Positions 1-63,900 of a stretch of DNA of 64,000 nucleotides are shown one piece after another (positions within the stretch are counted from its first letter, which is position 1; every line of letters starts with the position of its first letter). The stretch is from IMG/VR virus record IMGVR_UViG_3300033821_000010. One strand, 5' to 3'. A program made the translations under genes and the position numbers. The notes beneath the pieces are model-generated. The model was given only the letters and a program-made list of their open reading frames with translations, searched no databases and had not been told where the DNA came from. The DNA comes from an uncultured virus (IMG/VR IMGVR_UViG_3300033821_000010) (Duplodnaviria > Heunggongvirae > Uroviricota > Caudoviricetes).

Positions 1-3000
1 CTGCTCCACCACTGTTTCCCGGCCCTTGGAACCCTTGCGGGCCGTCTCCCTGAAACCCTTGAAATCCTTGTGGCCCTTGGAAGCCTTGAATACCCTGGAA
101 ACCTTGGAAACCCTGACTTCCTTGACTTCCACCACAAATAGCCCAATTACGATAAGTGGAGTCAATAGTACCATTATGTCTGAATACAGCAATTTGGTCA
201 CCAACATTAGGCGGAATAGCATTAAAGGGATGAAGAGTATCACTATATTTACCTGTGTTATCTGAATACCCATTTGGATAACAGTCTACCAAACAAGTTG
301 AGGTTCCGTCTGTAAGCCATGGATTATCAACCTGTGTAATAATGCCAAGGATAATTTCATCATTCCCAAGGTCAACAAACTTCTCAGCACCTACTTTATG
401 AAGAACAGTTCTAATACCACCATTTAGATAGGCGGGAGCAGTAAGACCAAGCTGCATGTGTATATTTTGACCATTAAGAATAGTAACACCACTGATAGCA
501 CCAGAAGTAGCGGCTTGATTAAATCCGTCAGCATATTCAAGACCTGAACATGTATTACTTCCGCTGTCATTGGTGATTAAAAATGGAACATCGGTTCCTG
601 CTCCTTGTGGACCTTGGAAGCCTTGGAATCCATCAAAACCTTGAACACCATCAAAACCTTGTACTCCGTCAAAACCCTGATTACCGTCAAAACCCTGCAC
701 TCCATCATTGCCTTGGAAACCGTCAAAACCTTGTACTCCGTCATATCCTTGGAAACCGTCAAAGCCCTGAACACCGTCAAAACCCTGCACTCCATCATTG
801 CCTTGTACACCATCATTGCCTTGTACTCCGTCATAAACATCTATAACTACAGGGTCTTCACCGTCTAAATTAAATGTTAACTCAGTTCCACCTGGAAATG
901 GTTCAGCAGTTAAAGTCCAATAGGCACCCTGTGGACCATCAAAGCCTTGTACTCCTTCTTTTCCTTGTGGACCGTCATAAACATCTATAACTACAGGGTC
1001 TTCACCATTCATATTCCAAGTTAATTCGTTACCACCTTCAAATGGTTCATTGGTCAGGGTCCAATAGTCACCCTGTGGACCATCCAGACCCTGATTACCG
1101 TCAAAACCCTGCACTCCATCATTGCCTTGGAAACCGTCAAAACCCTGTACCCCGTCAAAACCCTGCACACCATCAAAGCCTTGTACGCCATCAAAGCCTT
1201 GTACGCCATCAAAGCCTTGTACGCCATCAAAGCCTTGTACGCCATCAAAGCCTTGTACGCCATCAAAGCCTTGTGGCCCATTATACAAATCGAAAATAAC
1301 TTGGTTTTCATCACTATCAGGCAGCGTCCATATCATTTGAACGCCAGCATTGTCAGGCAAAGGTTCTGTACTAGGAACCCAATATGGTCCTTGTACTCCA
1401 TCATCACCTTGTGGGCCTTGGAATCCATCGTTCCCTTGAAATCCTTGAACTCCATCAAAGCCTTGTGGACCATTATATAAATCAAATTGTTCAATAGGAT
1501 TCTCATGTTCTGTATCGCTTTGATAATAAAAACTTGTCTGAAAACCATTCTCAATTGGTGTCACTACTATATCTATTGAATCACCCTGAACACCTTGGAT
1601 ACCTTGCGGACCCATTAAACCACCAGCAGTTACTAATGAACCTGCTAGAATATTTGTACTTGGGTCTGCGTTGCCTGGATAGCCAAGGTTCAAAGCGTCT
1701 AATTCTGTATCACTTGTTACAGCAAGTATCTTGTAGTAACCACCGTTTTCAATATAGATAATTTGACCATCAGCGAACATTGCAGTAGAGTCAACTTCAA
1801 CCGCCACGTCAAGGTCAACGTCTGGTTGTAAGAAACTTGCTGTGGTATGCGCGGCTGTTGGACCTGTGCCTTGAAAGCCTTGAAAACCTTGGAATCCCTG
1901 TATGCCTTGTGGACCTATCAAACCACCTGGACTTGTACCAGCATTAGTGCCAATAAGAGTGCCTTCATCAGCATTGCCTGGATAACCTAAATTTGTCACA
2001 AAAGCATTTGTTCCATCAAGGTCAACAGAAGCAACTTGATAATAGCCAGCACCTTCAATGAAAATAACTTGGCCAGAAACCATCCAACTACAATTTTCAA
2101 ATAATACTGTTTGTGAGGAATCTATAGCTGGCACATTGAATTCTTCTGTTGTTACAGTATAGGCATTTATACCTTGAATACCTTGGAATCCCTGTATGCC
2201 TTGTGGACCTATTAAACCCGCTGGACTCACACCAGCACCAATATCTATATAAGCACCGGAATCAGCATTGCCAGGATAACCCAAATTCGTTATTGCCGCG
2301 TCTGTATCAGAAGTCACAGAATCAACTTGATAATAACCAGCACCAGCAACATAAATAACTTGCGTAGGCACCATCCAACTACAATTCTCAAATGTTAGTG
2401 GTATAGAATTTCCGATATCTGGTGCATTAAAATCATCTGTTGTAACGGTATAAGCATTAACACCTTGGAAACCTTGAAATCCTTGTATACCTTGTGGACC
2501 TATTAAACCACCCGGACTCACGCCAGCATATAATGTTTCTACAGTACCTTCATCTGCATTGCCTGGATAACCTAAATTTACTATAGTAGCAAGAATATCA
2601 GAATCCACCGAGCCAACTTGATAATAACCAGCACCAAATCCAATATAAATAATTTGGTCAGGCACCATCCAATTACAATTTTCAAATGATACTTGTGTAG
2701 CTCCACCTATGGCTGGAGTAGTCCATGATTCTGTTGTTATAGTATAAGCATTAACACCTTGAAAACCTTGAATGCCCTGCGAACCTTGTGGGCCGTTATA
2801 AACATCAAACGTGGCAATAGGGTCGCCTTCAGGGTCGCTGGCATAATACATATTGACTTGAACGCCATTTATAATTTCTGTTACACCTACAACTATTGCA
2901 TCGCCTTGTGGACCTTGGAATCCTTGTGGGCCGTTATATAGATTAAAGGTTAGAAAAGGGTCTTCTTCCAATTCTTGGTCTGAATAATAGTAATTAGTCT

Positions 3001-4435
3001 GTACACCATTTGTAATAGGAACCTGAGTTACATCTACATAAGCTCCCTGAAATCCTTGCATCCCTTGGAAGCCTTGTGAACCACCACCTTGCGAACCTGA
3101 TATTTGTAGAACTGTATAAGAAGTCAAGTCGTTTGATAATGTTCCAACACTCCCGCTTGGAGAAGCTTGCGGACCAGACAGAATATCAAAATTTTGTCCT
3201 GATGGTGTTGCTGTTAAATCTTGATTATATTTTATAATTTGTACTGTTTGTGACCTATCAGGCTGTACATCACTTGTTGCCATGACTAAAGGCGGAATAG
3301 TGTCACGTGCAGCCCACACTTTTAGAAAATTCGGGTCATCTGAACTTGGACCTATAATTGACATACAACGTGCGCCAAAAACGCCTTTAACGAATCCTTT
3401 ACTCGTGCCTGTATAACATCCAATTGTTTCTCCAATAGTTATCGAACCACCATCGTTGATACTCATATCCACAAGAGCAAGGAATCTGCCAGCCGGGTAA
3501 GACGCATAACCAGTTCTTGGTGTTGCAACTGGAATAATATAGTTTTTGTGAATATAAAAATACGGAAAGCCATCATACAAATCAGATGCGTCTGCTGGAC
3601 TTGTGAGAATTAAATCACCAGTTGAATTATATCCGCTGCTACTACCCCTCTCAGGCACCAACGGCATTCCTTCTAATAATTCAGAACCACCATTCCGTTC
3701 ATAAACAACAGTTCCAAGTGATTCTGGGTACGGCGGTATGTCTTCCCAATAAGTCTCTGGATAAGCAAGTTGCGGAAAATTAAAAACAGGAATGAAATCC
3801 AGAGCCGAATCTGTGTGTCCAGTGCCAGCAATACCACCGCCAAAAACAACGAATTTTTGCAAACTACCCGTGGTATAACAAAGCATCCGAATCAAACCTT
3901 TAGGAACTTCTTCATCCCATTGTTTTGTCTTCGCATTGTATTGGGAATATACTTGTTCTGCAACATATCCATAATCATAAGGATTCCAAACTTCATCTCC
4001 ATCATCGTTAAGGCTTTTGAAGTATGTCCAAAACCACATAGTAAATGTATTAGAGGTTTGGTCATAAGTAATTCGTGGTTGATGAACTTCATAAAAAGGA
4101 ACGATTGACGATTCATCTTCGCTGATATAACAAACTATATTTGTTCCATTGGCCATTTTTTGATTGTTTAGGCGCGACATTAAAAGCATGTACTTGCCGT
4201 CAGAACTGTATGGAGGGGTTGTTGGAAGGTTGGTTTGATAGCGAGTAAATTGCAGACTACCTTCTGTGGTTTCTTCTGAACAATAATATATTTGTTTATT
4301 TAGGCCATCCTCATATAATTCAATATCGCCATATACGAAGTCACTACGGAAGCACAGAATATCCCTATCTTTAAGCACAACAATAGAGGGTGCATGACCT
4401 ATATGATACCATTCTGATATGTTAGAATCAGGCAT
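1..4435 (-). CDS. Collagen-like tail fibre / virion fibre protein (3'-truncated by window edge, >1470 aa)
   Basis: Missing from the ORF track because no stop lies in the window. ATG at 4435 (MPDSNISEWYHIG...). The same frame reads GFQGDGPQGFQGPG at 2-58 and FPGGTELTFNLDGEDPVVID at 841-900 (spot-checked, not every codon). G-X-Y (GPQ/GFQ/GVQ) tracts alternate with repeated globular modules; it lies downstream of the hub/TMP genes. Confidence 0.8.
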   Translation of the reverse strand, partial: MPDSNISEWYHIGHAPSIVVLKDRDILCFRSDFVYGDIELYEDGLNKQIYYCSEETTEGSLQFTRYQTNLPTTPPYSSDGKYMLLMSRLNNQKMANGTNIVCYISEDESSIVPFYEVHQPRITYDQTSNTFTMWFWTYFKSLNDDGDEVWNPYDYGYVAEQVYSQYNAKTKQWDEEVPKGLIRMLCYTTGSLQKFVVFGGGIAGTGHTDSALDFIPVFNFPQLAYPETYWEDIPPYPESLGTVVYERNGGSELLEGMPLVPERGSSSGYNSTGDLILTSPADASDLYDGFPYFYIHKNYIIPVATPRTGYASYPAGRFLALVDMSINDGGSITIGETIGCYTGTSKGFVKGVFGARCMSIIGPSSDDPNFLKVWAARDTIPPLVMATSDVQPDRSQTVQIIKYNQDLTATPSGQNFDILSGPQASPSGSVGTLSNDLTSYTVLQISGSQGGGSQGFQGMQGFQGAYVDVTQVPITNGVQTNYYYSDQELEEDPFLTFNLYNGPQGFQGPQGDAIVVGVTEIINGVQVNMYYASDPEGDPIATFDVYNGPQGSQGIQGFQGVNAYTITTESWTTPAIGGATQVSFENCNWMVPDQIIYIGFGAGYYQVGSVDSDILATIVNLGYPGNADEGTVETLYAGVSPGGLIGPQGIQGFQGFQGVNAYTVTTDDFNAPDIGNSIPLTFENCSWMVPTQVIYVAGAGYYQVDSVTSDTDAAITNLGYPGNADSGAYIDIGAGVSPAGLIGPQGIQGFQGIQGINAYTVTTEEFNVPAIDSSQTVLFENCSWMVSGQVIFIEGAGYYQVASVDLDGTNAFVTNLGYPGNADEGTLIGTNAGTSPGGLIGPQGIQGFQGFQGFQGTGPTAAHTTASFLQPDVDLDVAVEVDSTAMFADGQIIYIENGGYYKILAVTSDTELDALNLGYPGNADPSTNILAGSLVTAGGLMGPQGIQGVQGDSIDIVVTPIENGFQTSFYYQSDTEHENPIEQFDLYNGPQGFDGVQGFQGNDGFQGPQGDDGVQGPYWVPSTEPLPDNAGVQMIWTLPDSDENQVIFDLYNGPQGFDGVQGFDGVQGFDGVQGFDGVQGFDGVQGFDGVQGFDGVQGFDGFQGNDGVQGFDGNQGLDGPQGDYWTLTNEPFEGGNELTWNMNGEDPVVIDVYDGPQGKEGVQGFDGPQGAYWTLTAEPFPGGTELTFNLDGEDPVVIDVYDGVQGNDGVQGNDGVQGFDGVQGFDGFQGYDGVQGFDGFQGNDGVQGFDGNQGFDGVQGFDGVQGFDGFQGFQGPQGAGTDVPFLITNDSGSNTCSGLEYADGFNQAATSGAISGVTILNGQNIHMQLGLTAPAYLNGGIRTVLHKVGAEKFVDLGNDEIILGIITQVDNPWLTDGTSTCLVDCYPNGYSDNTGKYSDTLHPFNAIPPNVGDQIAVFRHNGTIDSTYRNWAICGGSQGSQGFQGFQGIQGFQGPQGFQGFQGDGPQGFQGPGNSGGA
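1171..1274. repeat. Perfect 18-nt tandem repeat (5 full copies + partial) encoding GVQGFD
   Basis: Unit catcaaagccttgtacgc at 1171, 1189, 1207, 1225 and 1243, partial at 1261; in frame within the fibre gene. Confidence 0.95.
1900..2760 (-). repeat. Three tandem copies of a ~95-codon module in the fibre protein
   Basis: Each copy reads NAYT(I/V)TT...FENC(S/N)WMV..Q.I.I..AGYYQV.SV...NLGYPGNAD.G...G.SP.GLIGPQG; approximately 1900-2170, 2200-2460 and 2490-2760. Confidence 0.85.
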
Positions 4436-4441
4436 AATCTC

Positions 4442-18083: not shown

Positions 18084-19004
18084 CTACGCTATCGGACCAT
18101 ATATCTGATACGACAAATTAATAGGTACTACATCACTTTGTCCTACAATATCATCTGCAAAATTATTCCATTGGCAAAAACCTAAATTTAAAGAACCAGC
18201 ACCTACAGCCGTTGTAATATTTGTTTCATAGGTTATTATTGCTTCTCCTTCAACTTCCCCACTTAGATTTACTATTACTGCACTTCCTGTAAACTCTCCT
18301 GTCATTGGCCCAAAAATCACATAAGACGGTGCGCGGGGACTGCTAGACGCCAGACAAAGTGATTGTTTTGCTATATCCTGATTAAAAGTCACTGTCCAAT
18401 TTAGCAGTTTTAAGTTGTCCCCCAATCCCCCGATATTCGTTTTCCAAAATGGTATTGGCGTCGTATTAAAATAAGCCGTTTTGTTCAATGTAGGAATCGG
18501 CAAACCACGTAAAGCATTCTTTCCATCAGTATCATCAATAACCCCACCCCTATTCTGAATATAGTTATCTTTAATAGTGGTATACTCTCCTCCAAGGCCA
18601 GAAACCTTAGTCCAACTCATCAAACTCATACTACTTGTAACTGCCGAACCTGCACCAGCCGCTTCCATTGAAATCGAAGTCCAATAACACTCTTGTAAAT
18701 GTTGTTGGTTTGATATCTGATTCCCTCTTGTCTGATAAACGATATTTTTGAAACCAGTTCGATTTATTAACCAACCTTTCCAACTATTGAAATATGTAGG
18801 TGTTGCTTCTACTGATATTGAACCATCATAATTAGGCCAATCATACGAATGTGGATAACCAATACCTGGACTGCCTGTTACACTGGTACTTCCCTTATAT
18901 GCCGAATTTGATTCTAGCCTTGTGCTTTGAAAGGGTGCTGAAATTGACGTTACTAAAACCAAGTTTCCATCAATTTCAGCGAATCCCTCATAGCCAACTG
19001 CCAT
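18084..19004 (-). CDS. Putative tail tube-like protein (paralog 2)
   Basis: Starts MAVGYEGFA; shares PIPFWKTN and GP...TG motifs with the intron-split paralog. Confidence 0.6.
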   Translation of the reverse strand: MAVGYEGFAEIDGNLVLVTSISAPFQSTRLESNSAYKGSTSVTGSPGIGYPHSYDWPNYDGSISVEATPTYFNSWKGWLINRTGFKNIVYQTRGNQISNQQHLQECYWTSISMEAAGAGSAVTSSMSLMSWTKVSGLGGEYTTIKDNYIQNRGGVIDDTDGKNALRGLPIPTLNKTAYFNTTPIPFWKTNIGGLGDNLKLLNWTVTFNQDIAKQSLCLASSSPRAPSYVIFGPMTGEFTGSAVIVNLSGEVEGEAIITYETNITTAVGAGSLNLGFCQWNNFADDIVGQSDVVPINLSYQIYGPIA

Positions 19005-19021: not shown

Positions 19022-20521
19022 TTACATCGCTCCCATGTACAATGGTGGATAAAGTGTATCTACTCCCGGTACTAAGCTTGGTGGTGGAAGAGAACCATCA
19101 TTATTAGCAGTTCTGCCACCCATACCTTTGAAGTTATAGGTACGGGTTGTTACTTCGCTCTGACCTTTCAAGCTGAAGTCATCTGTTTCTACCACAACTG
19201 CTGGCAAATCAATGTTGACGTAAGTTTGAATAGCTGGAGGAGGACCGCTAGTAGTAATTTGAATTCTGAATGCTGAATTCTCTGCCGTTCTTGGCAAATA
19301 ACCTGTTGGTGGGAATACAGGGTCAAACACGCCGTCTGTGTGGAATAATGTCGCATTACCAGTAGCTTCAATCGGTCCCATCAAAATTGCCGTTGGATAT
19401 CTTACACCGCTACAAGTATAGAGTGGCTGTGTATTATTGGTTAAATCAATACCCCAATCAGTAGCTTCTGTACCAGCCTGCCAAGGTGTCGGAGTACCCA
19501 CCCCACCCCAATTACCCGGAGTCCAATTACTTGTATTACCCGCTCCAGGCGTAATATCATAAAGTCTAGCATTTGTCTTCCAGAACGGAATTGGGTTTGT
19601 GTTAGTCTGGCCAGGATTCAAAGGATTCAAACCACGAATAGCAGGTGGAGTTGAACCAATATAACCCGTTCTTTGATTGATATACGGCAGCAACAACGGG
19701 TCAAGAGCAGGATAAGTAATAATACGGTAAATGGCAATAACGTTAATAGAACTTAACACAAATGAACCCTGTGACGTATTGAAATTCATTGACTGCACCC
19801 ACGCACCACAATTACTGTTTACATCAAAATGCGAGCCGACGCCAGGACCGTATGGATTTGGAGTAAGTGTTGTAGGGGTATTTAAATCACTCAAAGTACC
19901 CACCCAATAATGATAGAGTGATTGACCATCTGGAGAAATATCCAATGAGCGTGGCCATGCTCTCTGTTCAATAGCCCAATCACGTATCGCATTCCATATG
20001 CCTTGCGATGCTTGAAGTTCAATATCAATATTACCTTCATAGCGCAAAGCGGAATCAGCGTAATGTGCCGACATCGGAGCATTGTACCAACCAGCGCCCC
20101 ATACTGAAGACGAATAGATTGGTTCAAGAGCGATGTTTACACCGGCTGTTGTGCAAAGCAATATCAGCGGATTTGAAGGTGAATCGGGTAAGCCTCCATA
20201 AGCTCCACCGCCACTTCCTAGTGTGTATAGTCTCGCAAAACCTTGGTCATTCTGTTGCTTCGGTTTTTCAACCTACTAACCACTTTTATGTGGCGGGGAA
20301 ACCTCTTCGGATTTCCCTCTCCCGCTTCTTTTTGTTATACGGGAGTTCAGACTGTCGCATATAGTTAAAAAGCTACTTGTTCGGGTAAACTTTTCGCCTT
20401 TAACTATCCCTCTCATTCAGTCGTTCAGGCTACCTTTCGGCTTGCCCCTTGTTATCCACTGCTGGATTTCCAAGTCAATTAGAGAAGGTTGAATGGGACA
20501 ACTTGTTTATCCCATACCCAT
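19022..20521 (-). CDS. Putative major tail tube protein, spliced (exon 1 20509-20521, exon 2 19022-20247; 412 aa)
   Basis: AGGAGG RBS at 20531-20536, then ATG GGT ATG GGA T | intron | AC CAA GGT TTT GCG gives MGMGYQGFARL. This is in frame with the 19022-20161 ORF and matches the paralog start MAVGYEGFAEI. Confidence 0.8.
20248..20508 (-). ncRNA. Group I self-splicing intron, 261 nt, no internal ORF
   Basis: 5' exon ends in U; exon GGGAU pairs with intron GUCCC (P1 with U-G); terminal omega-G at 20248; P3 CCUUCUC/GAGAGGG; P7 GACUG (20418-20422)/CAGUC (20350-20354) within R-like GAACGACUGA and S-like AUGCGACAGUCU elements; removal restores the reading frame. Confidence 0.88.
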
Positions 20522-20536
20522 TTGATTGTTCCTCCT

Positions 20537-21346
20537 TTATACTCTGTTCTGTTTGTTCATAAACTCTTTAAATATTTTCCTCTTTCTTTCCAAACAGAGG
20601 TAACTCCCATCACTATACAAAATATCAAATAAATGTAATAACGTCTCTCTCTTGTTGGTGTTCAAAAAACCAAAATCCTTTTTTTCTCCATCAAAATACC
20701 AAGGTATGTACAAATTGAAATGCTCTAACAAAGTTTTCTGGACATAGGACAAACTCTTAGGATGTCCATAAAGACTGAAAACAAATTTACCATTTTTTCT
20801 CTTTTTGCTAATGCTTCCGTCTCCGTCAAACCAACCACGCAACACTTGAATAAACGCATTTTCACTTAAATATGGCACTATAAATCCGTCCGACTTCCTT
20901 CTTACCAAATTAAACTTTTGTAATAACTCTCTCGCATATTTTGCAGGAATAGTAATCCTGTACATCTTTCTAGTTTTCCTTTTATGTACGACACATCCTA
21001 ATCGTTTTGCAATGTCATCTAAAATCTGTCTATCCTTCAACTCCAATTGAACCTGCTTCTTCTTTGTTACGTTCCCGTCTGCAAATAACAAACCCAAAAC
21101 GTATGCCATAAATGAATTTAATCCATGCGCTTCACTTATAACGTTATTACCTCCTGACAAAAGCTTCCTACGTCTGATGAACTTCTTAGCCTTATTTACT
21201 TGAGTAATACTAAATCTTCTATGACCGCCCGTTGTTCTAATGGCTTTTAATGCACCTTTAAAAGCCAAACGTCTTATTTTGTCAATAGATAGACCACTGA
21301 GTTTTGCTAGATTGGAAGTTGTTAAAGTCGCAACTCCCATTCCCAT
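20537..21346 (-). CDS. Free-standing LAGLIDADG homing endonuclease with N-terminal MerR/IS607-type HTH
   Basis: Two motifs, AYVLGLLFADG and VLRGWFDGDGSI; C-terminal LERK; N-terminal 'IRRLAFKGALKAIRTTGGHRRF' HTH. Confidence 0.85.
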   Translation of the reverse strand: MGMGVATLTTSNLAKLSGLSIDKIRRLAFKGALKAIRTTGGHRRFSITQVNKAKKFIRRRKLLSGGNNVISEAHGLNSFMAYVLGLLFADGNVTKKKQVQLELKDRQILDDIAKRLGCVVHKRKTRKMYRITIPAKYARELLQKFNLVRRKSDGFIVPYLSENAFIQVLRGWFDGDGSISKKRKNGKFVFSLYGHPKSLSYVQKTLLEHFNLYIPWYFDGEKKDFGFLNTNKRETLLHLFDILYSDGSYLCLERKRKIFKEFMNKQNRV

Positions 21347-21371
21347 TTGTATATCCTCCTAGTTCAACCTT

Positions 21372-21422: not shown

Positions 21423-22388
21423 CTAATATGGTTTTATTAAAAAATTATCACAAAGAATCCTGTCCAAGCGCATAAAAGTTTGCTCACCTGTAAATTGCTG
21501 TCCTTGGCCTCTTAGAAAATCCCCTATTCTGCTAAGATAGCCTTGATATTCACTCTCTGGCATTTTTTCACAGTAGTCCATGATTTTCACCAAATCATAG
21601 TCAAATTTGCGCATGTCTATAAAAAGCGACGGGTCTATCATCTGCTCAATATTCCAAGCACCGGCATATATGGGCACCGCAGCAGCCAAAAACCCATGAA
21701 ATATCTTCTCTGTCATATAATTCACTGAGTAGTAATCATCATGCGTATTCTCAGTGGCGAACACAAATTTGGTCTTGGTCATCAAACCTCTGGCGTCTGT
21801 GAATTTGATTGGTGAAGACCGTTGACCATTCATATAGATTTCACCACCATAATTTTTATCTTCACGTGACCAGCCATAACCATAATATTTAAAACTTCGA
21901 TTAGCAGCCGCCTTTACAATTTCGTCTCTCATCCATCCAAAATAACAAGGTGGTTGGCCTTGTTTCGGCGGCTTCTTTCCTAACACCATTCCAAACGTGA
22001 AGTCCACTTTTTTGTTTTTGACAGCCTCTTCATAAATAGACAGTTCTTTAGTCCACCAGCCAAAAATTGATAGAGCTTTCGTATTCTGCTGTTTACAATA
22101 ATTTGGGTTAAAGTGCAAACGCAAATTGAATCGTTTATCAGTATCGTAGATGCAATACTGAGGCTGTAGATAGTAGAATGATTCTGCAAACCATGAAACT
22201 TGTGGACATCGTGCACCATACAAATACTCATTGCCGTTTGTGGTCAGCCAAATATCTTCAACATCCCAACCGTTTCCACCATAGCCATTTACCCATTCAT
22301 AATTCAAAGGTAAGGGTTTGATGTTGTTAAGTTCTAACTCCGATTCTTGTTGACTCCACGACCTCCAAAACACTTTTCTTTTCATCAA
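21423..22388 (-). CDS. Glycosyltransferase family 10 (fucosyltransferase-like)
   Basis: GT10 signature KFVFATEN...NYMTEKIFHGFLAAAVPIYAG. Confidence 0.8.
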   Translation of the reverse strand: MMKRKVFWRSWSQQESELELNNIKPLPLNYEWVNGYGGNGWDVEDIWLTTNGNEYLYGARCPQVSWFAESFYYLQPQYCIYDTDKRFNLRLHFNPNYCKQQNTKALSIFGWWTKELSIYEEAVKNKKVDFTFGMVLGKKPPKQGQPPCYFGWMRDEIVKAAANRSFKYYGYGWSREDKNYGGEIYMNGQRSSPIKFTDARGLMTKTKFVFATENTHDDYYSVNYMTEKIFHGFLAAAVPIYAGAWNIEQMIDPSLFIDMRKFDYDLVKIMDYCEKMPESEYQGYLSRIGDFLRGQGQQFTGEQTFMRLDRILCDNFLIKPY

Positions 22389-24756: not shown

Positions 24757-26232
24757 TTATTCTCCTTTGCTAAAATGCAATATCACTTCGTGTTCCGCGT
24801 CCTCTTTTGTAAGTTGCTTTCCTTGTTCTGCATATTCATCGGCTAAGCCCATTAAGAATGACGTTACTTTGCCGATGATTGGCCCTGCTTTTACGTTCAA
24901 AATCTGCATTATTTCATTGCCGTCAAGCACTGGTTTTTTGCCTACTTGAACAGGCGATTCTCTTATTTTCCTTACACGTTCCTTCAATTCAGGGACTCTA
25001 TTATTCACTGGTAAGCTACCTTTGGCATCTGCTTCTGCCAAATCCAACAAAGTATCCGCTAATTCGTCTCCCATTTCCCGAAGGAACTTGCGCAAAGACT
25101 TTTCACTTGCATCAAAAAGAGTCAAAGGGCGCATGTGATTTTCAACTAATTTTACTATCGTCTGAATCGTTTTAGCATCAAATTTCAGGCGATAGAGTAT
25201 GGCTTCGGCAATCTTAGCACCAGTTTCCGCATGACCGTGAAACTTGATTTCTTCACCAAGAATCTGTTGTGTGGCTGGCTTTCCAATATCATGTAATAAA
25301 GCCGCCATTTGACCTTCAATAGTGGGCGGTGCGTTTTTCAAGACCATCATTGTATGACGGAAAGCATTACCTTCGCTGTGATATTTAGGACTTTGTTCCG
25401 TCTTTTCAAGGTCCATGACTTCAGGCAGAATATACTGTAAAAGACCTGTTGCCTTCATCAACCTAATTGCTTTATGAAGTTTACCCAATGTCATTATCTT
25501 CTGTAATTCTCCCATAATGCGCTCGGCAGAAATTATCTTAATTCTATTAGCATTGCGTTTCACAGTATTAAGCACAGATATTGGTATTTTCCAACCATAT
25601 TTACAATAAAATCTTACGAGCCGCAGCATTCTTAGAGGGTCATCTGTGAAAATTTTATCCAATGAGACTTTTGGATGGCCGCGCAATATTCCTTCTTCAA
25701 TATCATGTTTGCTCACGCCCGTCATATCTAATACTTCACCAGTGCTTAAATCCTTCAAGAGCATATTTACTGTAAAATCTCTGCGCTCTATATCATCTTG
25801 AATCGTGCCAAATTCTGTTTTTCTTTGACGCGACATTTCATCAGGGAAACTTTCTTTCATTGTATCGGCAAACTCTATTATGGCTCCTTCGGTTTTGTAG
25901 ATTTCGTTCTTATAAGTGATATCTTCCTTAAAGGTGATTTGCCAAATAGGATAACCCGCCCCCATTTGATGTGGGTTGGTTACTGCCGGATAGAAAATCT
26001 TAGAGATGTAATGAGTTAGCTTTTCTGCTCCATCCTTCATTTCAACTACTACATCAAGGTCTTTGGCATCCAAGCCCATATGTTCATCTCTGTTATATCC
26101 ACCAACTGAGAATGTCTTACCGGCAAAAGATGTACCACTAAGAACAACTTTTAACAATCGTTCCACTTCCTTTTCAGCTTGTCCAGAAAGGATTGCTTTT
26201 GCTATTTTTTCTGTTATGTTGGCCAAAATCAT
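24757..26232 (-). CDS. cca: CCA tRNA nucleotidyltransferase (class II) with HD domain
   Basis: VGG..RD...KDLDV, DIERRDFTVN, DDPLRMLRLVRF, SAERI.GEL, H.EG....HT, LLHDIGK, FHGHAETG, ADAKG motifs. CCA versus poly(A) polymerase specificity is inferred from the HD fusion. Confidence 0.9.
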   Translation of the reverse strand: MILANITEKIAKAILSGQAEKEVERLLKVVLSGTSFAGKTFSVGGYNRDEHMGLDAKDLDVVVEMKDGAEKLTHYISKIFYPAVTNPHQMGAGYPIWQITFKEDITYKNEIYKTEGAIIEFADTMKESFPDEMSRQRKTEFGTIQDDIERRDFTVNMLLKDLSTGEVLDMTGVSKHDIEEGILRGHPKVSLDKIFTDDPLRMLRLVRFYCKYGWKIPISVLNTVKRNANRIKIISAERIMGELQKIMTLGKLHKAIRLMKATGLLQYILPEVMDLEKTEQSPKYHSEGNAFRHTMMVLKNAPPTIEGQMAALLHDIGKPATQQILGEEIKFHGHAETGAKIAEAILYRLKFDAKTIQTIVKLVENHMRPLTLFDASEKSLRKFLREMGDELADTLLDLAEADAKGSLPVNNRVPELKERVRKIRESPVQVGKKPVLDGNEIMQILNVKAGPIIGKVTSFLMGLADEYAEQGKQLTKEDAEHEVILHFSKGE

Positions 26233-38091: not shown

Positions 38092-38403
38092 TTAAGCATC
38101 TTTCATTCTGCGTGCTTGCCGTATCCCTATCACCTTATCTGTTAATCCGCTGAGTTGCTTCACTTCAATATCCGGTATCTTCGCTAATCTTCTAGCTATT
38201 AGTTCCGTTTCTTTATCACCGGCCTTATGCACCACTATCATGTCATATTTGCGAGCCTCATTTGAATGTTGCTCACCAAACTTACCACCTAAAACAAGAG
38301 CCTTTTTGCCAAAGACAGTCTTCACTTCTTGCCGTACAGCCGCAATCAGCTTCTCAGACCGTATCAAAGCCCCTATGTCAGATAACTCTTTCTTGATGTC
38401 CAT
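38092..38403 (-). CDS. Hypothetical protein
   Basis: 103 aa, AAGGGAAG RBS, promoter-like motif at 38434-38460. Confidence 0.6.
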   Translation of the reverse strand: MDIKKELSDIGALIRSEKLIAAVRQEVKTVFGKKALVLGGKFGEQHSNEARKYDMIVVHKAGDKETELIARRLAKIPDIEVKQLSGLTDKVIGIRQARRMKDA

Positions 38404-39577
38404 ATATCACTTCCCTTCGCCGGTTTGTGCTCTCTATTCTACTGTCATCTATAAAGAAATTGTTAATAGCTACTGGTACTTGTTTGTGCTCTTTCTCAAA
38501 TTCAGCCCAATTTTCCAATGTCGTAAACTTCCCAAACCTCTCATGTATCTTTTTGTGGCATGAATCACACAAAGCAACACCATTCTCTACATCACACCTT
38601 AACTCCCTAAACATGCTGTAATTTTGCTTGTGATGTGCTTTGATACCACCTTCCCTGCCACTACATATCCGGCAGCAATAATTGTCTCTCTTATACACTG
38701 CATCCCGCCACTCCACATAAGCCGGATTCAAATTTCTATGCTTATCGCCCCACCTGTCTTCATCAGTCAGATTTTTATTCCATCGGGGATGCTTTTCACG
38801 CCTTCGTTCCTTCTTCAAATCTCTATCAAAACAACCACAAGATTTTGTATGACCCATGTTTAGTACATTGGTGGTACATTTAATCATCTTCCCACATTCG
38901 CATTGACAATCCCAAATATAAGCATTGCCGTTTGAATGACTGAAGGAAATAACAGTCAACCTACCAAACTGTTTACCTATTATTTTTTGTTTTATTTGGC
39001 TGAACTTAACACAGCCGCAATCCTTAGTATCGTGAGTCAAGCTTTCTCTGGTATAGGTTGACACCTCACCGCAATCACATTTACATTCGTAGTGCTCGTT
39101 ATCTATCAATTTTGTAACCAGCAATTGACCAAACCTTTTACTAGTCAAGTCATCTAAATTGGTTTTTTTGTTAGGGTCGGAATTCAACCTCTCTGCATTT
39201 TTTCTTCTCGTTTCAATAGCAAGACAACCACAAGATTTTGTATTACCGCTTTTCAAAGAGCCATACGGAATTTCAACTTTTTTGCCACAATCACATTTAC
39301 ATTCCCAAATTGTTTGTCCTTTGTTCCAATCTACTCTTTGTATAGCTGTTAATCTACCAAATTTCTTTCCAACAATATCCCTTACCATTTTGTGTTCGCG
39401 TTTTAAGCAACCACAAGACTGAACTTCGTTATCTCGTAAATGATGTCTCATAACACACGCTATGTTACCACAATCGCATCTGCATAGCCAGACATAATGA
39501 TTCCCTTTTTTGGAATGCTTTTCTATCACCGTCATTTTGTTAAACCGTTCGCCCGTAAGGTCAATAAATGCGCTCAT
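38378..39577 (-). CDS. HNH homing endonuclease with four CxCxCG/xCGC repeats
   Basis: DLTGERF..LT...WxCxCDCG...SCGC x4; C-terminal RDNYCCRIC...AHH...NGVALCDSCHKKIH. Confidence 0.85.
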   Translation of the reverse strand: MSAFIDLTGERFNKMTVIEKHSKKGNHYVWLCRCDCGNIACVMRHHLRDNEVQSCGCLKREHKMVRDIVGKKFGRLTAIQRVDWNKGQTIWECKCDCGKKVEIPYGSLKSGNTKSCGCLAIETRRKNAERLNSDPNKKTNLDDLTSKRFGQLLVTKLIDNEHYECKCDCGEVSTYTRESLTHDTKDCGCVKFSQIKQKIIGKQFGRLTVISFSHSNGNAYIWDCQCECGKMIKCTTNVLNMGHTKSCGCFDRDLKKERRREKHPRWNKNLTDEDRWGDKHRNLNPAYVEWRDAVYKRDNYCCRICSGREGGIKAHHKQNYSMFRELRCDVENGVALCDSCHKKIHERFGKFTTLENWAEFEKEHKQVPVAINNFFIDDSRIESTNRRREVIYGHQERVI

Positions 39578-43027: not shown

Positions 43028-43957
43028 TTATTCCTTCCCTTGGTTAGATAAAACTCCCGATTTTTTAAGCAAACCAAATTCGTCCCATTGTTTTTTTGTA
43101 TTGTTTTTATAACCATAATTTTTGTGGAATTCATCATGGCATTTTTGACAAAGTGTACTCCCATTATTCAAATCAAAACGCAACTCTTTATTTTTTCCAT
43201 ATGAATATATGTGATGTGCTACTATTCCAAAAAATCTCTCCCGTTTTCTGCCACACAAACAACAAGAATAATTATCCCTTTTATAAATCTCCCTTCTCCA
43301 TTGTTTAATGCGTTTATCCCTTCCTTTTTTTAGTCTTTCTTCGTCCGTTAAAAGAGGATTATAATTCAATTTACTAAATCTTTCTATATTATAACAACCA
43401 CACGATTTAGTTCCACCACTTTTTAAGTTACATGTTTCTACTATTATTTCTTTTCCACAATCACATTTGCACAACCAACATGTCTTTCTACTTTTGCTAA
43501 TGTGGTGATGTTTCATTACTGTTAGTCTATTGAATTTTCTCCCCGTTATATCAAACTTTTCTCTTGTCCAACAACCACATGATTTAACAATTCCCGACGT
43601 TAACTGGTTTTTATATTTAACACATTTTTTGCCACAATCGCATTTACATAACCAAAATTCTACTCTGCGATTGTTTAAATTTTTAATTTCAAACAATTCA
43701 ATTACAGTTAGTTTTCCAAATTTCATTCCCGTTATGTCTTTTGATTTATTTGCCTCTTTTTTTGCACAACTTCCACATTGTTTACATTCACCGTTTGTTA
43801 TATCATTTTTATACTTTATTGAATTTTTACCACAATCACACTTACACAACCAACGTTCTTGTTTGTTATTGGTATAATATTTAACATCAAACAGTTTAAT
43901 AACTGTTAGCTTGCCAAATTTCATTCCAGTTATGTCTACTGCTTTTGGACCCGGCAT
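43028..43957 (-). CDS. HNH homing endonuclease with three CKCDCG repeats
   Basis: DITG.KF..LTV...WLCKCDCG x3; RDNYSCCLCG...AHHI...NGSTLCQKCHDEFH; likely start MPGPK at 43957. Confidence 0.85.
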   Translation of the reverse strand: MPGPKAVDITGMKFGKLTVIKLFDVKYYTNNKQERWLCKCDCGKNSIKYKNDITNGECKQCGSCAKKEANKSKDITGMKFGKLTVIELFEIKNLNNRRVEFWLCKCDCGKKCVKYKNQLTSGIVKSCGCWTREKFDITGRKFNRLTVMKHHHISKSRKTCWLCKCDCGKEIIVETCNLKSGGTKSCGCYNIERFSKLNYNPLLTDEERLKKGRDKRIKQWRREIYKRDNYSCCLCGRKRERFFGIVAHHIYSYGKNKELRFDLNNGSTLCQKCHDEFHKNYGYKNNTKKQWDEFGLLKKSGVLSNQGKE

Positions 43958-43958
43958 T

Positions 43959-44234
43959 TTAGTCACTCTGTTTAACCAACTTAGGCGCTGTTCCTGTTCG
44001 CTCACTTCTCATACGTTCACCAGCATGTTCATTCTTCTCTGTTTGCTCCCTGTTGAATTTAATACTCTTACCCGGCCAACCACCTCCAACAAGGATAAAA
44101 TTCACTCCACTGCCATAGTAACGTTCACAATCGCTATTACAGTCTTGACACTTGACTGTTTTTTCTGCATGTCCTACCCGAAAATCCATTTCAATCAGTT
44201 TGTTACATTTCTCACACCGATACTCAAATATCAT
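43959..44234 (-). CDS. FmdB-family zinc-ribbon protein
   Basis: MIFEYRCEKC...VKCQDC...FILVGGGW; AAGGAG RBS before 44234. Confidence 0.8.
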   Translation of the reverse strand: MIFEYRCEKCNKLIEMDFRVGHAEKTVKCQDCNSDCERYYGSGVNFILVGGGWPGKSIKFNREQTEKNEHAGERMRSERTGTAPKLVKQSD

Positions 44235-49494: not shown

Positions 49495-49571
49495 TGGTAG
49501 CGGGGATGGGATTCGAACCCACACTTGAATGATTTTAAGTCATTTTTCTCTGCCAGTTGGAATACCCCGCC
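49495..49571 (-). tRNA. trnL: tRNA-Leu (anticodon UAA), short variable loop, encoded CCA
   Basis: GGCGGGG...AATGA-CTTAAAA-TCATT-CAAGT-GTGGG-TTCGAAT-CCCAT-CCCCGCT-A-CCA, 77 nt. Confidence 0.9.
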
Positions 49572-56055: not shown

Positions 56056-56134
56056 TGGCATCTCCGGTTGGATTTGAACCAACGACCTCCGAATTAGAAG
56101 TTCGGTACTCTTATCCAGGCTGAGTTACGGAGAC
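56056..56134 (-). tRNA. trnR: tRNA-Arg (anticodon UCU), encoded CCA
   Basis: GTCTCCG...CCGAA-CTTCTAA-TTCGG-AGGTC-GTTGG-TTCAAAT-CCAAC-CGGAGAT-G-CCA, 79 nt. Confidence 0.92.
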
Positions 56135-60992: not shown

Positions 60993-63900
60993 TTATACAG
61001 TATTTTCTTGTAAATAAAGCATTGCGTTTTCTAATTTACTAGCCAATGTTGCGTTGATTGAAGCTCCTCCAGAAGTATACCATTGTATATAAACAGTATG
61101 TGCTCCTGCTGCTAGACCAGTTGCTTGATACACTATTGTACTATTTATAGCTATACCACTACTATAGAAATAGATATTAGTTCCTTTGAGTATTGTTGCA
61201 GTACCATCAATAGACAAACCAAATGTGTTTGTACTTCTTGAACTTGTATTAGAACTAGATGCAGTGAAGACTATCAACAATGTTGTACCTGCACTCGTCG
61301 TGATTGATTGTGACATTAAAGTTACATAAGAAGTGCTGCTTGTGGTATTATTTCCAGTGATATTGTTTACTACTGTTTGTTTAATAGATTGTATACCTTG
61401 TACTCCCGTAAAACCTTGTACTCCCGTAGAACCTTGTACTCCTGCACCTGTTAAACCTTGATAGCCTTGGAAACCACGTGGGCCTTGTACTCCCGTAGAA
61501 CCTTGTACTCCCGTAGAACCCTGTACTCCTGCGCCAGTTAAACCTTGAACGCCTGTAAAACCTTGCGCGCCTTTTGTTCCTTGTGTTCCAGTAAATCCCT
61601 GAACACCAGCGCCAGTTAAACCTTGTGGCCCAACAAAACCTTGAACACCAGTAAAACCTTGGACACCTGTTGACGCAAGTGATATAACATCAATACTGAT
61701 ATCTTCACCATAAATTGTATTAGCACCAGTAAGACGTATCCATTGCAATTTAACAGTATATGTTCCCGGCGCTTTCTTTGTCGAACTTCTAAATGATGCA
61801 GAGAATGTTCGTTCAAGGTCATCGTATGGTTCTTCAACGACAGCATCACCATTTTCGTTATCAATAACTACTCTCATGCTTACTTCAGAACCAGCACCAG
61901 CAGCACTAGTAGTAAGAACTATAGTACCTATTGCAAAAATATATCCTGTTGCTGTCGTTGTAATATCTACAGTGGCATTAGGAATATCTATCCAAGATGC
62001 GGAAGTCAATGTTTGTTGTGTTGCAGAATAATATCGTGCAGAAACGATTTCACCAGTGCCAACAGGGCCAATTAATCCTTGATAACCTTGTGGGCCTACA
62101 TTTCCTTGAACACCAATATCTCCAGTATTTCCTTGTGTTCCTACATTGCCCTGTACTCCCGTATTGCCTGTGAATCCTTGAACACCAGCATTTCCTGTTA
62201 AACCTTGTGTGCCAATAAAACCTTGTACTCCCGTAGCTCCAACATTTCCTTGTACTCCATTAAAACCTTGTACCCCCGTATTTCCTGTATTGCCTGTAAA
62301 TCCCTGAACACCAGCATTGCCTGTATTGCCAGTCAAACCTTGAACTCCTGCATTACCCGTCAAACCTTGTGCGCCCTTGACTCCCTGTACGCCTTGTGTG
62401 CCTTGAACTCCTGCATTTCCTGTTAAGCCTTGCGCGCCAGCAAAACCTTGTATTCCTGTATTGCCAGTCAAACCTTGTACGCCTGTATTTCCTGTTAAAC
62501 CTTGATTACCAGTAAAACCTTGTACTCCTGTATTTCCTGTTAAACCTTGAGCACCTGATGCTCCAATATTTCCTTGAGTGCCTGTGAAGCCCTGAACACC
62601 AACATTTCCTGTTAGACCTTGTACTCCCGTATTTCCTGTACTGCCAGTAAATCCCTGCACACCAGCGTTGCCAGTAAATCCTTGTACGCCAACATTGCCT
62701 GTGCTACCAACTTGACCTTGATATCCCTGTACGCCTGTATTTCCTGTTAAACCTTGATTACCAGCTACGCCTTGAACACCGGCATTGCCTGTAAAACCTT
62801 GAACTCCTGTATTGCCCATCAAACCTTGTGTACCTACAGCACCTTGGAATCCTAAGCCTTGAATTCCTTGTGGACCAGCAACACCTTGATTACCTGTGGC
62901 ACCCGCTACAGCTTCGATATTGCAATTGGCATAAACAATGGTAATATTTGTACCAGAAGATGTTAGATTAGCAGCGCGAACAGTAAAAATATCACCAGAA
63001 TTTACACCTGCAATAACTCCAGTGATTGCTACCACGTTATATTCTGTAGAAACACCCATTCTTGTTTGAGCAAGATGGTCAGGAATTTGATTTCCATTTT
63101 TGTATATGCCAAAAACCAAATCTTGTGAATTTGTATTACAACTAACCGAGAGCGAACAATTAGTAATATATGTTCCCGTTGTATTGCAAGTTAAAGCATT
63201 TGTGGCATAGGAAAAACCTGAATTATCGCCAGCAGACCATCCAGTAATTATATAGTAGTTTCCAACAGTGGTTAATGTTTGTGAAGTAGAATTGTTATCA
63301 ATTACCATCTCACCAAAAGCTGCTGACCCCGGTACTGCTGGAGTACCTTGATTTCCCTGAACACCTGTAGCTCCTTGGAAACCTAAACCTTGAATCCCTT
63401 GTGAACCAGCAACGCCCTGAACTCCATTATTTCCTTGAGTACCAACATTGCCTGTTGACCCTTGGGCACCTACACTTCCTGTATTTCCTGTACTGCCTGT
63501 AAATCCCTGAACTCCTGCATTCCCTGTTAAACCTTGAACACCTGCATTCCCTGTAAATCCTTGGGCACCTACATTTCCTTGTACGCCTATATTGCCAGTC
63601 AAACCTTGAACACCTGTACTACCAATATTTCCTTGGGCACCTACATTTCCTTGTACGCCTATATTGCCTGTAAATCCCTGAACTCCTGCATTCCCTGTTA
63701 AACCTTGAACACCTGATGCTCCCATATTTCCTTGCGTACCTACATTTCCTTGAACGCCTGTATTACCTGTAAATCCTTGTACCCCCGTATTACCGATATT
63801 GCCTTGAACACCACTATGTCCTTGTGGACCCGGTACTGTTGAAGCATCACCAGTATAGCCTTGCGCTCCTACATTTCCTTGTGGGCCTGTGTCTCCAATA

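Follow-up and report, generated by a model that had tools for sequence, protein, structure and literature searches.

Here, we found a predicted group I intron that interrupts a tail-tube gene after nucleotide 13 (four codons), next to a free-standing homing-endonuclease-like gene, in the genome of an uncultured virus (IMG/VR IMGVR_UViG_3300033821_000010, Caudoviricetes). The window, i.e. the whole stretch of DNA that was analysed, comprises 64,000 nucleotides. By comparison with uninterrupted alleles we conclude that the intron is real, and going by established group I chemistry it would almost certainly splice. We regard it as probable that this is a functional group I intron moving by collaborative homing, and homing of this kind, once the intron is granted, as distinctly probable. 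The features of the locus are collected in Table 1.

Table 1. Predicted features of the interrupted tail-tube locus in the window
Feature	Position	Strand	Remarks
Old tube start, now nuclease start	21335..21359	minus	GGAGG at 21359-21355 and codons M-G-M-G
Free-standing homing-endonuclease-like gene	20537..21346	minus	269 aa; MerR-type HTH and two LAGLIDADG motifs
GGAGG Shine-Dalgarno of working tube start	20535-20531	minus	1 nt past nuclease stop codon
Tail-tube start codon ATG	20521	minus	read from sequence
Exon 1, tail-tube gene	20509..20521	minus	13 nt: four codons and first base of Tyr5
ORF-less group I intron (predicted)	20248..20508	minus	261 nt, terminal G
P1	20493..20515	minus	20515-20509 with guide 20499-20493; U·G 20509·20499; -9.6 kcal/mol
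P3	20488-20482 with 20414-20408	minus	100% paired; 6 of 7 pairs change on both sides
P4	20474-20471 with 20451-20448	minus	four pairs only; 100% paired in 23 introns
P6	20447-20445 with 20429-20427	minus	100% paired in 23 introns
P3-P6 region including P5, P6a	20408..20488	minus	P5 89.6% paired
P7 pseudoknot with P8 between its strands	20349..20424	minus	comparative model
P9-region hairpins	20279..20345	minus	three modelled; fourth hairpin precedes terminal G
Exon 2, tail-tube gene	19022..20247	minus	two-domain tube fold like P74-26 and T5 pb6
Uninterrupted downstream paralog	18084..19004	minus	context; E 1e-5

Read without splicing, the tube frame closes at codon 5 in a TAA (20509-20507) that uses U13 of the exon. 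A 407-codon open frame follows the intron, and the two exons, joined by script, form one open frame of 412 codons beginning MGMGYQGFARL. This reproduces the N-terminus proposed in a first-pass annotation of the DNA, whose intron coordinates (20248-20508) proved exact; its view that the tube product depends on splicing agrees with the early stop. The start is indeed miscalled, as had been expected: the ORF lister picks a TTG at 20161, and the database copy of the protein (P0004, 350 aa) is 62 residues short. The assignment of exon 1 draws on the sequence, on 57 intron-less alleles and on the alignment to L041, and the spacing from GGAGG to start resembles that of the intron-less alleles; this exon 1 is probably a copy delivered with the mobile unit described below. 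Similarity to the downstream paralog, to which the spliced N-terminus had originally been matched, exists but is weak, so that the orthologs are the real evidence. The start itself (20521-20510) is a near-tandem hexamer. In alleles interrupted after nucleotide 12 that hold two identical hexamer copies, the first could serve as a cryptic in-frame 5' splice site.

Three locus scans yielded 120 loci, which after addition of the window and removal of 33 duplicates, 3 truncated loci and 1 non-hit gave 84 distinct classifiable alleles. The gene is uninterrupted in 57 of them and carries an insert at codon 5 in the other 27, the window included. The complete inserts (25; 222-277 nt) hold no ORF. A U·G pair at the 5' site, a stop at codon 5 and, upon removal, a restored conserved N-terminus are each found in 25 of 25 complete copies, which bears out both splice sites as they had been placed, and a terminal G is present in 24 of 24 related complete copies as well as in the window. 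No insert is present in the nearest relative (L041/P0005, 78% identical), whose N-terminus is the same as that of the spliced window gene. The inserts fall into two classes, 17 after nucleotide 13, the window's class, and 10 after nucleotide 12, and both boundaries restore the orthologous N-terminus, in two different phases (+12 and +13). Positions G10, G11, T13, A14, G19 and G20 are invariant in the 57 distinct intron-less alleles. Longer matches in L009 and L014 that were considered as inserts turned out to be the downstream paralog.

A quickly built tree of 81 tubes implies 18 changes of intron presence, at least 11 of them forced by well-supported branches; shuffled labels gave counts as low as 18 in 34 of 500 trials, i.e. 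the observed number is not clearly fewer. Such scattered presence would fit mobility, gain and loss being inseparable on this tree. The +12 introns form one clade (support 94) within the +13 set, and the branch enclosing this clade (support 78) also holds two introns of reductase genes; the +12 site possibly arose when the intron slid by one base, or else by an independent gain. L012 and L114 are 99.3% identical upstream of the site and 94.7% downstream, but a +12 intron accompanied by a nuclease is found in one and a solitary +13 intron in the other.

Does the insert fold as a group I ribozyme? The predicted fold of the intron region is more stable than that of any of 200 shuffled sequences (z -4.59). 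A group I model of 59 pairs was fitted to 23 complete introns, the other two of the 25 being an identical and a near-identical copy. Across these 23, 96.8% of the model cells are paired, compared with 80.3% upon shuffling, a test inflated by relatedness for a model drawn from the window sequence, and 38-45% with the partners slid. Two-sided changes occur at 37 of the 59 pairs, and those in P3, P6, P7 and P8 would not be explained by relatedness or by the origin of the model in the window. In the +13 class, the guide base changes in step with the Gly4 wobble position, and each of the four pairings occurs (A-U, U-A, G-C, C-G). P7 is 100% paired, with two-sided changes at 2 of 6 pairs, and P8 shows them at 5 of 5 (23 introns); the predicted guanosine site is G20422-C20350 with a bulged C20423. 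The four-pair P4 is shorter than usual, there is no P2 in the model, and pairing of P10 with the 3' exon is weak (1-4 bp across alleles, 2 in the window). Subgroup IA, the td and Twort type, has an extra helix between P7 and P3; here, just 3 nt lead from the 5' strand of P7 to P3 in 23 of 23 introns, and the IA helix is absent from all of them. Thus, the ORF-less group I intron proposed at the outset is supported by a covarying model together with 57 intron-less alleles, and the predicted structure shows every tested sequence and structure feature of such introns save P10 and the Rfam score.

An Infernal-type search had been suggested as a check; with Rfam, at gathering threshold and at E up to 10, the insert drew no group I match. 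Since it is unrecognised in both modes, the case rests on comparison. The Rfam group I model misses whole subgroups, according to PMC11878797. The splice junction is absent from three RNA assemblies, whose contigs are unable to show transcription; they hold one 185-nt contig (at least 99% identity) within the nuclease gene and one divergent piece of a 3' intron end. A sequence profile of the intron found no second copy within the window. P1 had been placed inside the footprint of the initiating ribosome. Judged by the size of that footprint, this stands for the 5' strand of P1 (+7 to +13) but not for its 3' strand, which lies outside (+23 to +29).

The assignment of the host as a tail-tube gene was borne out by structure: the model of exon 2 (pLDDT 80) matched the two-domain tubes of P74-26 (8ED0, E 6e-12) and of T5 and DT57C (E 7e-10 to 3e-9) in a fold search, and the first residues encoded by exon 2 form a conserved, well-predicted beta strand. 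The gene lies ahead of two paralogs and of a 2220-aa tape-measure-like ORF (15115-8453), and we infer that it encodes the major tube rather than a tube-like initiator. Elsewhere in the window, a glycosyltransferase-like gene (21423-22388) common to L041, whose copy matches Pfam Glyco_transf_10, sits inside the tail operon and was seen in none of the 17 loci compared. We also noted a tRNA nucleotidyltransferase-like gene (24757-26232), two tRNA genes (49498-49571 and 56059-56134), two free-standing HNH endonuclease genes (38378-39577 and 43028-44005) and long collagen-like tail-fibre genes with repeats (60993-63725 and 1-4441).

The first-pass annotation had recognised the intron of this locus and missed the adjacent HTH-LAGLIDADG gene and the second insertion site. 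Both LAGLIDADG aspartates of the nuclease (D90, D176) are invariant in 7 of 7 aligned members. DNA similarity between the window and L041 spans the upstream genes and ends at nucleotide 11 of the L041 tube gene, which corresponds to 21336; in three sister pairs (window/L041, L047/L002, L067/L009) it ends at nucleotides 11-12 of the intron-less start, and this boundary coincides with the M-G-M-G of the nuclease. Because the boundary falls at the nuclease start, the insert would consist of nuclease, new ribosome-binding site (RBS), exon 1 and intron, about 1.09 kb in all, and in the alignments these predicted parts form a single insert, placed where the intron site lies in the intron-less allele.

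With 13 alleles set aside for too little upstream DNA, the HTH-LAGLIDADG family flanks 10 of 23 intron alleles, drawn from both classes, but none of the 48 intron-less alleles; L042, L071 and L115 were counted solely because their nuclease match was visible on a short contig. A paired test on the tube tree gave six independent pairs, none opposite (median p 0.031), and became non-significant (p 0.22) upon pooling with the distant LAGLIDADG genes (23-27% identity) that occupy the equal position, ahead of an intact start, in the intron-less L055, L069 and L115. The nuclease is absent beside 10 of the 23 intron alleles, and LAGLIDADG genes of a second type lie beside three +12 alleles, two of which are near-copies. 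The HTH-LAGLIDADG family thus accompanies two intron lineages one base apart. Among 23 database members of the family, 7 begin MGMG and 8 read on into a tube start, all 8 of them intron-bearing by eye (one is L017). The old start is not captured by all: the nucleases of L017 and L076 lie at the end of the upstream gene, and in L006 a small ORF separates old start and nuclease.

Several loci show the traces of rearrangement at this spot. In L006 (3680-4720) the RBS and first four codons occur twice in almost identical form, with a 73-aa ORF and the nuclease in between. L119 (189-1295) reads as exon 1 with a 5' half-intron, a LAGLIDADG_2-like gene, and then full exon 1 and intron, and looks like a recombination intermediate. 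The unrelated LAGLIDADG genes of L012 (4038-4070) and L017 (3953-3985) agree over codons 1-11 and meet the upstream gene at an identical junction, which suggests that one replaced the other. Scanning viral contigs with the nuclease sequence alone gave no match, an alignment search of them returned two already-known loci only, and genomes yielded distant relatives alone (21-36% identity). A search for longer nuclease-tube fusions found zero, which is weak evidence. A hairpin at the nuclease start was not significant (z -0.55) and is absent from three relatives; promoter and terminator scans stayed at chance level.

Based on group I chemistry, a G would attack at U13·G and the exons would be joined at the terminal G. 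Unspliced RNA would give a four-residue peptide only, and the ribosome would therefore stop before P3 (+34); splicing would remove the P1 hairpin from the start region. We speculate that the LAGLIDADG protein cuts the uninterrupted sequence of codons 1-8 in a co-infecting phage, that either intron (+12 or +13) would split this target and so protect its carrier, and that repair would copy nuclease and intron together. The mobile unit would carry its own copy of exon 1, which it could do because exon 1 is so short, and later loss of the nuclease would leave an ORF-less intron alone. The fullest form of this proposal is a composite mobile element, made of a nuclease outside the ribozyme, a replacement RBS with exon 1, and the intron. 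It would land within the opening codons of an essential late gene, hand the old start to the nuclease and, through splicing and a start of its own, repair the gene; a single nuclease family would serve two intron lineages one base apart. We hold the chances for and against this fullest form to be even.

Other readings of the same locus have to be weighed. The intron could be real and merely hitch-hike by co-conversion, the nuclease targeting another site, e.g. in the upstream gene. Several family members do insert at the end of that gene, and other LAGLIDADG genes and unrelated ORFs occupy the intergenic spot in intron-less alleles. However, the HTH-LAGLIDADG family itself is missing from all 48 intron-less alleles, in the three sister pairs the insert is bounded by the intron site itself, and the link still holds in the window, where the upstream gene is a different one (glycosyltransferase-like); we consider co-conversion rather unlikely. 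The nuclease could also be a former intron-encoded enzyme that was displaced by recombination at the duplicated start and is now inactive or mainly a maturase. The arrangement of L119 would agree with such a turnover, as would a nuclease copy split into two frames in L117, and endonuclease turnover is raised as an alternative origin in PMC10448857. Against this, no complete tube intron holds an ORF and the catalytic aspartates are kept throughout the aligned members; introns without any nuclease are common, so that a maturase in cis would be unnecessary. This origin appears improbable to us.

Two further readings concern the start region and not the nuclease. If the intron were kept as a regulator, competition between ribosome loading and P1 formation would time the synthesis of the tail tube. 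P1 covers +7 to +29 and the codon-5 stop is found in every complete copy, but the intron is missing from 57 of 84 alleles, sister phages among them, and phage introns in general have an in-frame stop at the 5' site, according to PMC2504315 and PMC3984707, which makes a regulatory role very doubtful. It is hardly conceivable that the insert acts as a structured leader on the 5' side, with the protein starting inside exon 2: the negative Rfam result and the internal starts chosen by gene callers speak for this, but the opening residues of exon 2 belong to the conserved beta strand, and the orthologous N-terminus is restored in all 25 complete copies and in two phases. Collaborative homing of a functional intron is the reading that we prefer.

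Pairs of an intron and a separate nuclease are known. Collaborative homing is described for F-CphI and the psbA intron of cyanophage S-PM2 and for T3/T7-like phages, and is proposed for terL of Vibrio phage ICP1, where the endonuclease adjoins the N-terminal exon (PMC3984707, PMC10448857). The tube locus resembles these pairs, as described there, in joining a group I intron that lacks an ORF to an adjacent free-standing endonuclease gene. It differs from them in that its partner is an HTH-LAGLIDADG protein whose gene often opens with the old RBS and four codons of the host, in that the unit brings a new exon 1, and in that the nuclease family accompanies two intron lineages whose sites differ by one base; cleavage by the nuclease is predicted here. 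The partnership as such is known; what sets this case apart is its LAGLIDADG partner, the capture of the start and the presence of two adjacent sites.

The surprise that the first-pass annotation attached to the class of host gene was overstated. Tail-tube group I introns are published for Twort orf142 (PMC11878797) and for the BwK1 prophage of the B. cereus group, the latter being without a complete endonuclease gene and located in the most conserved stretch (PMC2504315); these two and the window intron all interrupt tail-tube genes. PMC2504315 assigns the prophage introns of the B. cereus group to IA1 or IA2; the window intron differs in having no P7-P3 helix. From mycobacteriophages, PMC3706429 describes a 265-bp minor-tail intron of BAKA and a capsid intron of LittleE, both spliced efficiently in late genes. 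As in the window, these are small introns in virion genes with U before and G at the end; unlike the window, they reside in other host genes, and LittleE has its nuclease inside the intron.

Is a short first exon in a virion gene peculiar to this locus? The core motif of the intron was found in at least 122 viral stretches and in 85 genome stretches, some of the latter being chance matches. From 118 downstream ORFs of other family members, 77 were chosen and scanned, and 40 encode capsid, portal, tape-measure or tail proteins, 5 ribonucleotide reductases and 15 endonucleases, with 17 giving no match. Nor is an exon 1 of 13 nt the shortest: first exons of 6 or 12 nt precede 4 of 154 distinct motif-matched introns, as predicted by pattern only. 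With the bias to virion genes and the other short first exons, the locus stands alone neither in its gene class nor in its short exon. In L175 (1-2458, minus) and L239 (1-658), a family intron follows a 6-nt first exon (Met-Ala, then a stop) in an unassigned, capsid-like gene; a PHROG search with the L175 exon gave no match. In L269 (1-1171) and L272 (1-2060, minus), it follows a 12-nt first exon and has an HNH-type ORF in the P9 region, and the downstream exon of L272 resembles that of L175. Two or three family introns lie close together in L123/L124, L138/L139, L149/L150, L154, L169 and L173, several of them in major capsid genes. BLASTN against annotated phages returned weak, unannotated matches only, and a literature search, mostly of main texts outside subscription, found neither the tube locus nor so short a first exon described.

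PMC10448857 describes the origin of collaborative-homing arrangements as unclear. The locus family offers a population-level record of it, with empty, intron-only and nuclease-plus-intron alleles, often in sister phages, and with two nuclease types and two sites. Prediction narrows the nuclease target to about 25 bp, which makes a test cheap, and a ribozyme of 222-277 nt beside a start codon makes a clean system for the competition between initiation and P1 docking. As for annotation, 27 of the 84 alleles of this tube gene would be given wrong gene models, and Rfam overlooks an intron family that sits in many capsid, portal, tape-measure and tail genes. If the composite element is true, it would show how collaborative-homing pairs arise and would explain an uncatalogued family of introns sitting 6-13 nt after start codons.
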